Shown: in pieces, positions 10,785 through 29,570 of the stretch | Position numbering within the stretch: the stretch's first letter is position 1 | Layout of the letters: every line of letters starts with the position of its first letter | From: Vulcanimicrobiota bacterium | Lineage (GTDB): Bacteria; Vulcanimicrobiota; Xenobia; Xenobiales; JADMJV01 | Assembly (NCBI GenBank): GCA_050250895.1 | Contig: JBFWNU010000001.1 | Span: forward strand, 1,956,791 to 2,020,790 | Length of the DNA: 64,000 bases | Direction: 5' to 3' | Notes under the pieces: model-generated | Told to the model about the DNA's origin: nothing | Databases searched by the model: none | The model's input: the letters and a program-made list of their open reading frames with translations, nothing else | Made by a program: the position numbers and the translations under genes

Positions 10785-10823
10785 AAAAGAAGAGAGAACC
10801 GCACGACTGCGCGGTTCTCTCTT
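10785..10823 (-). terminator. Intrinsic terminator of the tRNA operon
   Basis: 13-bp stem AAGAGAGAACCGC/GCGGTTCTCTCTT followed by a T-rich tract on the minus strand. Confidence 0.75.
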
Positions 10824-10897
10824 GGTGGGTCGTGTAGGATTTGAACCTACGACCACCTGATTAAAAGTCAGATGCTCTACCCCTGAGCTAACGACCC
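10823..10897 (-). tRNA. tRNA-Lys(TTT), probable integration site
   Basis: Canonical cloverleaf; anticodon arm CTGA-CTTTTAA-TCAG; CCA encoded. Confidence 0.95.
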
Positions 10898-25896: not shown

Positions 25897-26334
25897 GTGG
25901 AAGTCTTCTTGTTGCGGATTTTTCCCGTTCTTCTTTTTTTGGGGGGGGTCGTCTTCGTTCCCGTCGAGATCCGCAACTTCGCCCGCGAGAAGGCTCAAGG
26001 CCAAGCCCGCCCGGTCAAACTGATTCGTCGTCTACTGGGGGCCGTGGTGCTGGCCGGTCTGGCAGCCATGGTCTTTTTCGGCGAACTGCCCAAAGACGCC
26101 CACCAGGATGCGGCCGCCACCATGGCCCAGTTTCAGTATTGGTTGAGCGTGTTGGGTCTGGCCATCTTCCTGGGTTGCCTGGCCGTCTGGGATGCCCTCG
26201 ACGGCTTTCGCCACCTGCGCGGCTACCTGGCTCGGGTCGAGTCGGAGGAGATCGAGCAACTACACCGCCAACTCGGAAAGTCAGGAGCCCAGCTCAAGGC
26301 CCAGGCCAACGGCAAGCCCAGTGACTCGGATTAA
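25897..26334 (+). CDS. Hypothetical membrane protein
   Basis: Three TM segments; TTGACA-17-TAACCT promoter ends 6 nt before the GTG. Confidence 0.7.
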   Translation: MEVFLLRIFPVLLFLGGVVFVPVEIRNFAREKAQGQARPVKLIRRLLGAVVLAGLAAMVFFGELPKDAHQDAAATMAQFQYWLSVLGLAIFLGCLAVWDALDGFRHLRGYLARVESEEIEQLHRQLGKSGAQLKAQANGKPSDSD

Positions 26335-26947
26335 GATCTGTGGCTTGACCCGTCCCCAAGATGTGGATCGGGCTGTCGATTTGGGAGCGGATTGCATCGG
26401 GTTTGTGCTGGCCGAGAGTTCGCGCCAGATAGACCTGCCAACCCTGGCCGCTTTGACCCGGCGAATCCCACCGCCGATTGCCCGCATCGCGGTCATGGTC
26501 GACCCCAGCCCGGCAGAGGTGCAAAAGGCTCTGGAGTTGGTCGACTGGGTTCAGCTTCACGGCCGCGAGACTCCTGAATTTTGCGGGCGTTTTCCTGGTC
26601 GGTTGCTCAAGGCGTTTCGGGTGCGTCAGCCCGACGACCTCGAGGTGGGCGAATATGCCGAAGTGGTCTCGGCCTATCTTTTTGACGCCTATCACCCGCG
26701 CCTGGCCGGAGGAACCGGCGAGCGCTTCAACTGGGAGTGGCTGCAGGGCCGCCAGTTCGCCAGGCGTTTCTTTCTGTCGGGCGGATTGACCCCGGCCAAC
26801 GTGGGTCAGGCCATCGAAGAGGTGTGTCCGTGGGGAGTCGACGTCTCGAGCGGAGTGGAGAGCGACCGCGGCATCAAAGACCCGAGCTTTATGGCCGACT
26901 TTATCAACCAGGCCAGGCTGGCCGCGGGTTTCTCGCCCCGTTCCTGA
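26321..26947 (+). CDS. trpF: Phosphoribosylanthranilate isomerase
   Basis: RIKICGLT, VQLHG.E, GGTG..FNW, LSGGL...NV, GVDVSSGVE; GTG at 26321. Confidence 0.95.
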   Translation: MTRIKICGLTRPQDVDRAVDLGADCIGFVLAESSRQIDLPTLAALTRRIPPPIARIAVMVDPSPAEVQKALELVDWVQLHGRETPEFCGRFPGRLLKAFRVRQPDDLEVGEYAEVVSAYLFDAYHPRLAGGTGERFNWEWLQGRQFARRFFLSGGLTPANVGQAIEEVCPWGVDVSSGVESDRGIKDPSFMADFINQARLAAGFSPRS

Positions 26948-27021
26948 GTAACTGACCGACTCTCTCAAGTCTCAGCAGGCTGCCGGCCAGGTCGAGTCGC
27001 AGGGTTGCTTCCCTCCGCACC

Positions 27022-27050
27022 TTGACCACACATGCAATATTGGTTATGAT
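27022..27050 (+). promoter_or_regulatory. Sigma70 promoter for the leader-tRNA cassette
   Basis: TTGACC-17 nt-TATGAT; palindrome CAATATTG in the spacer. Confidence 0.75.
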
Positions 27051-27080
27051 GTTGGCACATTCTTCCCCAGGAGGTCCCCT

Positions 27081-27146
27081 ATGAAGCGCAAGTTCCGAAA
27101 ACGTAACTTCTTTCGATTTACGAGGACCTGTAGTGTCAACGGTTAG
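27081..27146 (+). CDS. Putative leader peptide MKRKFRKRNFFRFTRTCSVNG overlapping the tRNA-Lys 5' end
   Basis: AGGAGG at 27069-27074, 6 nt before the ATG; codons 2-13 are 3 Lys, 4 Phe, 4 Arg and 1 Asn. Confidence 0.65.
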   Translation: MKRKFRKRNFFRFTRTCSVNG

Positions 27147-27199
27147 CACACGCGCCTTTTAAGCTTGGAGTCGGGGTTCGAATCCCTGCGGGTCCACCA
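27124..27199 (+). tRNA. Atypical tRNA-Lys(TTT)
   Basis: Acceptor GGACCTG/CGGGTCC-ACCA; D stem GTGT/GCAC; anticodon arm CGCGC-CTTTTAA-GCTTG (one G-U pair, one C-U mismatch); TTCGAAT T loop. Confidence 0.85.
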
Positions 27200-27203
27200 G
27201 TCC

Positions 27204-27280
27204 GGTCTCTTAGTGTAGCCGGTGTCGCACGCGGGATTGAAGATCCCGAAGTCTCGGTTCGAGTCCGAGAGAGACCACCA
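27204..27280 (+). tRNA. Atypical tRNA-Phe(GAA)
   Basis: Acceptor GGTCTCT/AGAGACC-ACCA; anticodon arm CGGGA-TTGAAGA-TCCCG (G37); T arm CTCGG-TTCGAGT-CCGAG. Confidence 0.88.
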
Positions 27281-27281
27281 G

Positions 27282-28556
27282 TCATTCCAATTTCAGCCAG
27301 TTGGCTCTTGCCGTGTGCACCACGTCGTCGGTGCGTTTGCGCAGGTGGCGGTGCGGATTGAGGGACGAGGCGAGAAAGCCCGTGATGCCCAGCGAGGGCA
27401 CAACGATACCCATCACGGGGCCAAATCCGATGCCGGCGAGTGGACCCTGGGGTCCCGTGAAAAATTGGACGCCGAAACTTGCCAGGATGCCCGACGCCAG
27501 CAAGGCATATACTGCCTGTTCCAGGTTGAAGTCTGGGTGAATCAGGCTGGCCATGATTCCCCGCGCTCGCAAAGTCTCGATGCGCGGGGCGAGGGCCTCG
27601 AGTTGCTGCTGCCAGGTCAAGTCGCACGTCTTTCTCAGCTGGGCTACTTCGGGATTGTCCAGCACAGTGCCCTCGTTGAGGTGGTGGGTGAGATTCTGGC
27701 CGGCCACCAGGGCCCGGGCTCCGACTTGAGGGCCGGGCAGGTCGAGGCTGGCTCGCACGACCCCCCGCACCACCACCTGCATCTGGTTGGGGCCAGTCAA
27801 ATCGAGGGGGAGAAGAAAGGCCCTCGAGGCCCCGCAATCGCCCGAACTGCCGGTCGGTCGCACCAGCAGCAGTTCCTGTTCGTTCTCGGGGACGCGAATC
27901 TTGAAGGGCGGGTTGCTGGCAGCCGTGACCAGGTCCAGGCTCAGCAGCCGGCGGTTGGGGGCCGGCCAGGCCATGGCCTCCTGGCCGTCCCAAAAGCAGC
28001 GCAGGGGTGCAAAGCGACACTTTGCCTCGAAGGTAGCTCTCAGGTCGCGGGCAAAGCCTGCCCAGTCAGACTTCTCGGGGCCGCTTAGAATCAAACCCTG
28101 GGCGTGTGACTCTCCATCCAGGGCCGGGCACTCCCCGGGGCACCAGGCATCGTCTTCGACAAAGAGCGAGTAACCGCCGGTAAAATCCACAAAGACGGGC
28201 CGGATGTCTTCGGCGAACAGGGCTCCGTTGAGGCATAGCGACAGGTCCTGGTAGAGGTCGCTGTCGGTGGCGAAAGGGTTGGCCAGGGCCTGTTGCAGCC
28301 TGGCCAGGTCGAGTTGCCGTCGAGGGGGATCGAGCCAGAATGCCAGCCCCTGGCTCGAGGTTTGCACGCGAACTTCTTCGATCTCGAGGCCGTAGCAGAA
28401 TTGGACGAACTTGAGCAGAAAGGCGTGGCGGTCGCCCTCGAGGTGTCGGGCCAGCTTTTCGCGAGCCGATTGGGCCGAGATGGTGAAGCGACCGGTCGAT
28501 ACAAAGCGCCCGCTTTCCCGCAGCTGGTCTAAGACGTGGTTTAGCCCCCCGCTCAT
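27282..28556 (-). CDS. Hypothetical protein, degenerate GHKL/HSP90-like N-terminus and C-terminal TM helices
   Basis: S.G.FT.....AREKL.....FLLKFVQ N-terminal segment; hydrophobic C-terminus. Confidence 0.55.
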   Translation of the reverse strand: MSGGLNHVLDQLRESGRFVSTGRFTISAQSAREKLARHLEGDRHAFLLKFVQFCYGLEIEEVRVQTSSQGLAFWLDPPRRQLDLARLQQALANPFATDSDLYQDLSLCLNGALFAEDIRPVFVDFTGGYSLFVEDDAWCPGECPALDGESHAQGLILSGPEKSDWAGFARDLRATFEAKCRFAPLRCFWDGQEAMAWPAPNRRLLSLDLVTAASNPPFKIRVPENEQELLLVRPTGSSGDCGASRAFLLPLDLTGPNQMQVVVRGVVRASLDLPGPQVGARALVAGQNLTHHLNEGTVLDNPEVAQLRKTCDLTWQQQLEALAPRIETLRARGIMASLIHPDFNLEQAVYALLASGILASFGVQFFTGPQGPLAGIGFGPVMGIVVPSLGITGFLASSLNPHRHLRKRTDDVVHTARANWLKLE

Positions 28557-29500
28557 CGGGATAGGCTTCGCGATGGGTCCTTCGGGCCCCTCGGCAGACG
28601 CACGGTGAAGGTCGTGCCCACCCCAAACTCGCTCTTGACCTCGAGGCTGCCACCCAGAAGTTGGCAGAAGTTGCGGGTCAGGGTCAGGCCGAGACCGGTG
28701 CCGCCAAAGCGGCGGGCGATGGTGGCATCGGCCTGGGTGAAGGGCTCGAACACTCTGCCCGGCTGCTCGGGAGTCATCCCGATGCCGGTATCCTCGACCA
28801 CTCCTCGCGGCAGATCTTGGCCCCTCCGGCTTCCAGCTTGCCAGGCTCGAGGATGCCTTCGATCAATTTGAGCAGGTGCTTGGCGTTGCGATCGATGGTC
28901 TCGAGGCAGTCACGGTCGCGCTCGGGCAGGTCGACCAGCAGCATCTCGGTGAAGCCGAGGGTCGAGCTCATCGGGGTGCGCAGCTCGTGGGTGACGTGGG
29001 CTAGAAATCCGGTCCGGGCTCGCGTAGTGGCCTCGAGGGCCTTTTTTTCGTGCTCGAGCTGGCTCAGGCGACGCCGTTCGGTCAGGTCGCGCGAGTTGAG
29101 CACCAGTCCCCCCTGGACGTCGGCGCTGACCACAGCCTGCAGAAATCGGTCTCCCAGGCGAAAGTCGAGGCTGAAAGTCTGGTCGGGGTTCTCGCGGGCT
29201 CGGGCCAGACTAAGCCGCAGGCTTTCCGTATCATCGCGGTCGACCTGCTCGGGTAACGGCTGGCCGCGCAACCACTCGGCGGTGAGCCCGAGCCGGTCGA
29301 TGGCGGGGCTGACATAGGTCACGCGATCCTTCGGGTCGAGCACCAGGGTGGTGTCCGACGAACACTCTCGGAGGTCAACTCGTAGACGGTGGACCGGTTC
29401 TCGAGCAGCATGACCAGGGTCAAAAGCAGGGCCACCAGCACTACCGGCGCGGTCATCAGTAGCGGGACCCGGACACGTATGGGAAGTCGGCCTAGAATGG
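28553..29500 (-). pseudogene. Degraded PAS-histidine kinase (frameshifts and internal deletion)
   Basis: TM piece, PAS+HisKA (FLAHVTHELRTP) and HATPase G boxes (DTGIGM, GGTGLGL) lie in different frames; the N-box region is missing. Confidence 0.8.
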
Positions 29501-29570
29501 GCCCCCATTCTGCGCGGCCGGCCCCGCCAGGCTGGCAGGCGCCCCCCTGGGCAGGAACGAACCGACGGCC

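Follow-up and report, generated by a model that had tools for sequence, protein, structure and literature searches.

The subject of this analysis is a stretch of 64,000 nucleotides (the window) on contig JBFWNU010000001.1 of a Vulcanimicrobiota bacterium (assembly GCA_050250895.1), and within it a short open reading frame (ORF) that is led by a Shine-Dalgarno (SD) sequence and reads into the first of two tandem tRNA genes, tRNA-Lys(UUU) and tRNA-Phe(GAA) (Table 1). A preliminary description, made from the letters of the sequence alone, had placed a promoter, an SD and this mini-ORF ahead of the two tRNA genes, and all of these elements were recovered, the tRNA genes both by ARAGORN and with the Rfam tRNA model; an Rfam search of the locus gave nothing above threshold beyond the two tRNAs. 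The promoter-like site was the only one within positions 26000-28600, where shuffled sequence gave a mean of 0.3, and a transcript started there would take in both the SD and the mini-ORF.

Table 1. Positions in the window of the leader-tRNA locus and of the features to which it is compared
Feature	Position	Strand	Remarks
Promoter-like site TTGACC-17-TATGAT, sigma-70-like	27022..27050	+	10/12 consensus matches
Shine-Dalgarno AGGAGG	27069..27074	+	ATG at 27081 is 6 nt further on
Leader mini-ORF MKRKFRKRNFFRFTRTCSVNG, 21 codons	27081..27146	+	member of the MKRK class
In-frame core CGA AAA CGT (Arg-Lys-Arg)	27096..27104	+	conserved in alignment A1; AAA begins 25 nt before tRNA +1
tRNA-Lys(UUU), supernumerary, atypical	27124..27199	+	ARAGORN; Rfam tRNA model, 50.8 bits
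tRNA-Phe(GAA), supernumerary, atypical	27204..27280	+	ARAGORN; Rfam tRNA model, 60.8 bits
Housekeeping tRNA-Lys(UUU), Pro-Arg-His-Arg-Lys cluster	10823..10897	-	canonical copy
Insert of ~2.6 kb between trpF and trpB	26948..29570		trpF-trpB adjacent in relatives G001 and G005

The mini-ORF starts 43 nt upstream of the tRNA-Lys gene, crosses its 5' end as had been described, and stops in the D loop at a TAG (27144-27146) that occupies tRNA positions 21-23. Its codons 2-13 read K R K F R K R N F F R F, in agreement with the earlier count of 3 Lys, 4 Phe, 4 Arg and 1 Asn, with AAG and AAA as well as TTC and TTT in use. Lys, Phe and Arg account for 3.1%, 3.5% and 7.1% of codons in the long ORFs of this genome, compared with 11 of these 12 leader codons. 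SD-like motifs are enriched before the long ORFs of the genome (19.6%, versus 7.7% at a control offset). Throughout the genome, which was surveyed as 9.5 Mb on 17 contigs with 64 ARAGORN calls, AGGAGG-N5-8-ATG was counted 327 times and ATGAARCGNAAR, the pattern for ATG-AAR-CGN-AAR, 20 times on both strands together; an SD-led ORF ending near a tRNA start was found at 4 of the 64 tRNA calls, and was rich in Lys and Arg at the window locus only. The arrangement of promoter, SD, ORF and tRNA is more than chance.

Both tRNA genes have an unusual GUGU/GCAC D stem, and the tRNA-Phe gene begins 4 nt after the tRNA-Lys gene, which has an encoded CCA and a C29-U41 mismatch in its anticodon stem. Because a housekeeping tRNA-Lys(UUU) is encoded elsewhere in the window, the tRNA-Lys behind the mini-ORF is an extra copy; the canonical tRNA-Phe sits elsewhere on the contig. 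A pattern for this tRNA type gave 8 loci (6 with a Pirellulales or Pirellulaceae label) in 185,579 species genomes and 65 loci in viral contigs, with a second tRNA pattern giving 17 loci in metagenomes. The type was present in 3 of the 401 genomes of a Pirellulaceae family sample, and a tRNA-Lys with this D arm was found in none of the 39 other genomes of the order (1/40 in all). At the Pirellulales loci 6 to 19 tRNA genes form a long array. The tRNA type of the window is rare, patchy and phage-like.

Ten homologous leader and tRNA-Lys loci were selected by way of the tRNA alone (L001, which is the window, L002, L003, L005, L006, L007, L009, L099, L088 and L091), a set that takes in the window, six Pirellulales-labelled genome loci (one of which, L099, stems from the Pirellulaceae sample) and two contigs from metagenomes. 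A core of CGA-(NNN)-AAA-C is common to all ten leaders; in their alignment (A1) AAAC is invariant and CG nearly invariant, and the window is set apart from the other leaders by a deletion of exactly one codon within the core. In the frame that reads the AAA, a start codon (ATG, GTG or TTG) lies upstream, without a stop in between, in 10/10 loci and is preceded by an SD-like site in 9/10, as against a start in 5/20 and an SD with a start in 1/20 for the two other frames of the same loci. This is the conservation of the upstream ORF that the preliminary description had put forward as its check, and the leader ORF is not a chance frame. The AAA lies 24-31 nt from the tRNA, except in L091 where the distance is 17 nt, and the ORFs stop anywhere from 4 nt before the tRNA to 38 nt inside it, with L009 and L099 running through the tRNA. 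The remaining 54 distinct contexts in which this tRNA type occurs, phage for the most part, do not have the core. One further locus, L073, matched a loose regular expression for the motif and was left out, its distance from the preceding tRNA being only about 25 nt.

Two viral loci from a second scan with a tRNA pattern, L113 and L119, carry SD-led ORFs that begin MKRK, like that of the window, and run into a tRNA-Lys, the ORF of L119 standing before a Lys(CUU)-Lys(UUU) pair. Viral contigs were scanned with ATGAARCGNAAR-N70-100-GGTTCGAATCC, that is ATG-AAR-CGN-AAR followed by the common T-loop sequence with the anticodon left unspecified, and 34 loci were obtained, 25 of them distinct. The downstream tRNA was tRNA-Lys(UUU) at 16 of the distinct loci, a CUA tRNA at 3, Gln at 1, Gly at 1 and none at 4, where tRNA-Lys(UUU) made up 26 of all 395 tRNAs in the loci of the scan. 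The three CUA-tRNA matches have no SD and stop at TAA, and were not counted as members of the class. At the 16 Lys-linked loci the distance from the ATG to the tRNA is 33-56 nt (43 in the window), and by inspection an SD-like site was present in 14/16; strong SDs and AAA as the second codon are seen among these ORFs. The MKRK ORFs are followed by tRNA-Lys bodies of diverse sequence, so the link is with the anticodon class and not with one tRNA lineage. From these loci a conserved module can be outlined that would consist of an SD, a mini-ORF beginning AUG-AAR-CGA-AAR or with an internal CGA-(x)-AAA, and then a tRNA-Lys(UUU) gene, and which seems to travel with the supernumerary tRNA-Lys(UUU) of phages and of horizontally spread tRNA arrays. 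The window, with its AGGAGG, its ATG AAG CGC AAG and its tRNA-Lys(UUU) at +43, conforms to this outline, and its ORF is a member of an MKRK class tied specifically to tRNA-Lys(UUU) genes. When the window locus and five viral modules were searched against collections of phages and plasmids, only tRNA bodies matched, and the leader was not seen there in any cultured phage.

The ORFs of the class are 5 to 30 codons long, and in the 16 viral loci they end inside the tRNA in 11 cases and no more than 3 nt from where it begins in a further 3. Minigenes of the lambda bar type have an SD and a length of 2 to 6 codons, which is not shared by the window ORF (21 codons) and is shared by 2 of the 16 viral ORFs, L127 and L141, which have five. 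The ORF could in principle encode a basic micropeptide, or act as such a minigene in which Lys and Arg tRNAs are sequestered by early drop-off of peptidyl-tRNA and the tRNA-Lys compensates, and in addition to the two five-codon members this would accord with the keeping of MKRK at the amino-acid level, AAG/AAA and CGC/CGA varying between the window and the viral loci. We consider this very unlikely, however, given the spread of lengths, a C-terminal part that is set by the overlapped tRNA sequence, and conservation that ends after the first residues. Two further ORFs were seen among the viral loci. L113:11085-11200 holds a very basic SD-led ORF of 38 codons, a short way upstream of the MKRK leader and within the same tRNA region. 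In L114, some 95-45 nt before tRNA-Lys(UUU), an ORF that begins ATG CGA AAA CGA AAA CAC ends 45 nt before the tRNA and starts inside the loop of a 12-bp perfect hairpin; it is possibly a structured variant of the module.

Replacing the ATG of the scan pattern by GTA gave 8 loci (6 distinct), none of them with tRNA-Lys, so that the start codon is required. An MRKR start gave 79 matches (25 distinct) with tRNA-Lys at 1, the matches being mostly one repeated element of one sample without a tRNA, and a MERE start gave 5 loci (4 distinct) with no tRNA-Lys and no tRNA-Glu. The repeated element (L166-L243, viral and mostly of one sample) begins MRKRQRAP and has a T-loop-like GGTTCGAATCC 70-100 nt downstream, in 21 distinct forms; no tRNA was called in it by ARAGORN, and it could represent either an attachment site or an element resembling a tRNA. 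Codon 3 is CGA in 16/16 Lys-linked loci, where any CGN was allowed, and is CGC in the window, which has a CGA-AAA pair at its codons 6-7. In the part of the Lys-linked ORFs that lies 5' of the tRNA, AAA is used 51 times and AAG 9 times, with CGA 25, CGT 6 and AGA 1, compared with a background of 81 long ORFs in the same loci in which CGA is 22.8% of CGN and AAA 61% of Lys codons. The choice of CGA and AAA is under selection, and AAA, the preferred Lys codon of the leaders, is read only by tRNA-Lys(UUU). A Fisher test under a relaxed rule was post hoc (L001, L006 and L091 fail the rule) and was given little weight.

These same data bear on the view that CGAAAAC or CGA-NNN-AAAC is a DNA or RNA site, for processing, protein binding or recombination, and that the open frame around it is incidental or due to chance. 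The core is indeed conserved at the nucleotide level, and CGAAAAC occurs twice in some leaders (L114, L119). Such a site would not need the frame, SD and start that accompany the core (10/10 versus 5/20 in the other frames), nor an ATG, whose exchange for GTA took the count of tRNA-Lys from 16 to 0, and the spacing of the core varies by whole codons only; of the explanations weighed here it is the one that we hold to be the most improbable.

The constraint on synonymous codons is also pertinent to the possibility that the peptide is a drug sensor, in which an antibiotic-dependent arrest at a +X+ motif, which stalls macrolide- or ketolide-bound ribosomes, would switch on spare tRNAs under translational stress. 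A +X+ motif is found in every member (K-R-K, R-K-R or R-[F/L/W/H]-K), and in the available text of two reports it is a documented arrest motif for ketolides and macrolides (PMC8298421, PMC12583479). A long tRNA array of Anabaena is likewise described, in the part of the report available, as responding to translational stress, being induced upon impaired translation (PMC8421152), but the same array is placed under control of the repressor TrcR in the text seen of a second report (PMC10272220). Sensing through the peptide only would need no constraint on CGA and AAA, the motif is trivial in any peptide rich in Lys and Arg, and the ORF is specific to the position ahead of tRNA-Lys(UUU), which is often mid-array and not at the head of the array. 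Macrolide-type +X+ arrest leaders are alike in being very short ORFs with the motif near the N-terminus; unlike them, the locus has its synonymous codons constrained and a tRNA downstream, with no sequestered SD and no hairpin for a stalled ribosome to open in order to free a ribosome-binding site. We therefore regard a drug sensor as quite unlikely.

No terminator-like site was found within 27050-27124, and the fold of the leader RNA was not significant (z of +0.5 and +1.46), as is expected for a stretch that is translated. The comparison with attenuators made in the preliminary description fell short in this respect, with neither a terminator nor a significant alternative fold at the locus. 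An unstructured, A-rich leader, together with strong SDs, AAA as second codon and a variable ORF end, would also suit translation without sensing, in which the mini-ORF protects or helps the precursor by blocking the loading of Rho, shielding the A-rich leader from RNases or placing a ribosome as a 5' barrier, and the Lys-rich start is no more than initiation context. This would leave unexplained the restriction to tRNA-Lys(UUU) (16/21 tRNA-bearing matches versus 26/395 in the background) and the fixed CGA, and such ORFs were rare in the other long spacers of the same arrays, at 26/547 by a strict rule. We consider it unlikely, though less so than the explanations by peptide, drug or nucleotide site.

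We instead favour, at a probability of roughly one half, the reading that the mini-ORF is a genuine translated, cis-acting leader that reports the decoding of AAA and gates a replacement tRNA-Lys(UUU). It builds on the conservation, reading frame, start-codon dependence, codon selection and tRNA-Lys(UUU) specificity observed in the sequences compared; as to whether ribosomes stall, in which direction the regulation goes and at which step it acts, we infer the following. Ribosomes on the leader would report the capacity to decode AAA, and perhaps also CGA. When Lys-tRNA(UUU) is plentiful they would reach stops at or inside the tRNA body, which are supplied by conserved features of the tRNA (a UAG at positions 8-10 and a UAA in the anticodon loop), keeping its 5' part unfolded and covering the RNase P site, so that with smooth translation little extra tRNA would mature. 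When Lys-tRNA(UUU) is scarce, for example after the action of a tRNA-Lys-specific defence nuclease, ribosomes would pause at an early AAA, 25 nt or more upstream, and the pre-tRNA would be free to fold and to be processed, perhaps with its 5' side shielded by the paused ribosome. The product tRNA would in this way feed back on its own maturation, in a loop suited to a replacement tRNA. As an alternative output, the paused ribosome might protect the precursor.

Several observations weigh against this reading. The two five-codon viral ORFs, L127 and L141, end 26 and 38 nt before the tRNA; occlusion cannot be the whole story because 2/16 viral ORFs stop at this distance and others run on, occlusion by a terminating ribosome is not universal because these two are short, three end at the edge of the tRNA and L009 and L099 run on, and it may be only transient because a terminating ribosome leaves. 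By the strict rule, 28 of the 36 tRNA-Lys(UUU) genes in the collected loci are without the ORF and 8 have it, and no such ORF precedes the tRNA-Lys genes of the cultured phages Vibrio phage X1 and S-CRM01. A leader-like ORF with CGA-TGG-AGA-AAA, of Arg/Trp/Lys flavour, precedes tRNA-Leu(CAA) in L007. The fixed CGA and a near-fixed 12-mer could be explained by a nucleotide-level signal and not by decoding, the counts overstate independence because the loci are related by descent, and the window tRNA-Lys, with its mismatched anticodon stem, may be decaying. The sequencing runs with the stretch comprised 12 DNA runs, at small shares (0.08), and no RNA run was listed. In the L007 spacer between tRNA-Gln(UUG) and tRNA-Leu(CAA) the sequence is AAAGGAGG, then 8 nt, then GTG CGA TGG AGA AAA GGG CGC.

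The match between leader codons and downstream tRNAs on which the preliminary description had relied stood for Lys, through the association of MKRK ORFs with tRNA-Lys(UUU) at 16/25 distinct loci, and not for Phe, where it was confined to the window. Among 19 MKRK loci, the tRNA that follows the Lys was Lys(CUU) in 3, Lys(UUU) in 1 (L119, where the first tRNA is Lys(CUU)) and Arg(ACG) in 1, with Ala, Met, Ile, Asn (twice), Glu or none in the remainder; a following tRNA-Phe together with four Phe codons was seen in the window only (n=1). No ORF with Phe codons was found upstream of the tRNA-Phe genes of the arrays, which are unlike the window tRNA-Phe, and no general rule linking codons to anticodons emerged for other tRNAs, an SD-led ORF being present without pattern in 26/547 other contexts. 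By the strict rule the ORF was present at 8/36 contexts of Lys(UUU), against 26/547 for the others, and the proposed co-variation of upstream ORF codons with anticodons did not extend to a general rule. The Phe codons may have been added to the window ORF to serve the co-transcribed tRNA-Phe.

The cassette lies in an insert flanked by a Ser/Thr kinase gene and trpF upstream and by trpB and trpA downstream. The boundaries of the insert (26948-29570) follow from the kinase gene, trpF and trpB being contiguous in two relatives, G001 and G005, one of the same genus and one of the same family. Besides the cassette, the insert carries on its minus strand a 424-aa ORF and a PAS+HisKA fragment (27282-29508), in which the ATPase domain was not detected. 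The 424-aa ORF has coding-like GC content at third codon positions (GC3), a hydrophobic C-terminus and two close homologs; no Pfam, NCBIfam or PADLOC family matched it and no link to the cassette was found, and its N-terminal 110-190 residues match nine places in the genome and several in relatives, making this a domain that is multi-copy in the order. A BLAST search of the 301-nt locus against 40 relatives matched only the genome itself. The cassette is foreign and supernumerary, a two-tRNA piece inserted between trpF and trpB with a promoter of its own.

Other atypical tRNA genes were observed alongside. In the Pirellulales arrays L002, L003 and L007 there are tRNA-Leu genes of 75 nt without a long variable arm, and L002 has a tRNA with a CUA anticodon that was called Pyl by ARAGORN. 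Outside the window, the Vulcanimicrobiota genome (G000) holds a second atypical set at C13:52451-52967, made up of a tRNA-Leu(CAG) of 78 nt without a long variable arm followed by Tyr and Ser. Upstream of this set are a promoter-like site (TTGACA), which overlaps with an inverted repeat of 10 perfectly matched bp, and an ORF of 25 codons that lacks an SD; a terminator-like hairpin with a T run lies immediately 5' of the tRNA-Leu. Two atypical tRNA-Pro(UGG) genes (C1:3194844-3194920 and C11:21512-21588, likewise outside the window) are present besides the canonical one, and a tRNA 3'-end fragment lies just upstream of an atypical tRNA-Gly at C4:696040; the extra tRNA-Pro genes and the fragment could be integration scars.

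Among known systems, attenuation leader peptides of the trpL, hisL and pheL type are the closest in form, being short SD-led ORFs with codons cognate to the downstream product and with the ribosome as presumed sensor. A short ORF with a ribosome-binding site and a start upstream of a gene is found here too, as is enrichment in cognate codons (AAA in 10/10 homologs, and MKRK with tRNA-Lys(UUU) in 16/25), that for Phe in the window only. The terminator/antiterminator pair was looked for at the locus and is missing, so the locus does not belong with the classical attenuators; unlike in these, the controlled gene would be a tRNA overlapped by the ORF and not a biosynthetic operon, and the element is mobile and phage-borne. 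Short ORFs reportedly also occur among the tRNA genes of phage T5, and Barth et al. 2021 reportedly belongs with the tRNA-cleaving toxins that are sensed through small ORFs. L-arrays, going by the portion available of the report on them, similarly consist of supernumerary, atypical tRNAs that are patchy and foreign and are described as horizontally spread (PMC8421152); they have many tandem tRNAs on the same strand where the window has 2, and the homologous Pirellulales loci have 6 to 19. The word 'leader' does not occur in the available text of that report. Spare phage-type tRNA-Lys(UUU) is shared with the counter-defence tRNAs of phages, and the anticodon nuclease PrrC has tRNA-Lys(UUU) as its target (PMC10264068, PMC11555353 for the former, PMC10264068 for the latter, each in its available part); the portions available of these two papers cover the tRNAs themselves and describe no upstream ORF, and neither 'leader' nor 'promoter' is mentioned in that of PMC10264068. 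With VapC4 and tRNA-Cys in M. tuberculosis, as given in the accessible text of PMC13096801, loss of one tRNA similarly stalls ribosomes at its codons in small ORFs, the output being protein-coding genes where the presumed output here is a replacement tRNA.

In line with the statement of the preliminary description that no system with this layout was known, the literature search turned up no account of an ORF that precedes or overlaps a tRNA gene in bacteria or phages, although supplements, which it did not cover, might list such ORFs. This suggests that the locus represents leader-peptide sensing in a form for which no published description was found, and that the module is defined here. More tentatively, we can picture a replacement-tRNA cassette with self-sensing, widely distributed among large phages and mobile tRNA arrays, in which cognate codons together with CGA might let the ribosome control whether the precursor folds, is processed by RNase P or stays stable, and from which a spare tRNA might be freed when nucleases of the PrrC or PARIS type destroy the host tRNA-Lys(UUU); this wider picture is possible but doubtful.

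tRNA genes are by textbook untranslated genes. If the leader acts as proposed, this would be the first tRNA gene controlled via translation of its own cognate codons; ribosomes would regulate tRNA supply directly, and the contest between phages and hosts over tRNAs would gain an added layer. It would likewise bear on how silent, horizontally acquired tRNA arrays get switched on and on the way in which phages use their spare tRNAs against defence systems that cleave tRNA. The module, at ~120 nt, is compact and lends itself to work in cell-free systems; it might be used as a sensor of decoding capacity, and it would be a translated element that gene callers and tRNA annotators systematically miss.

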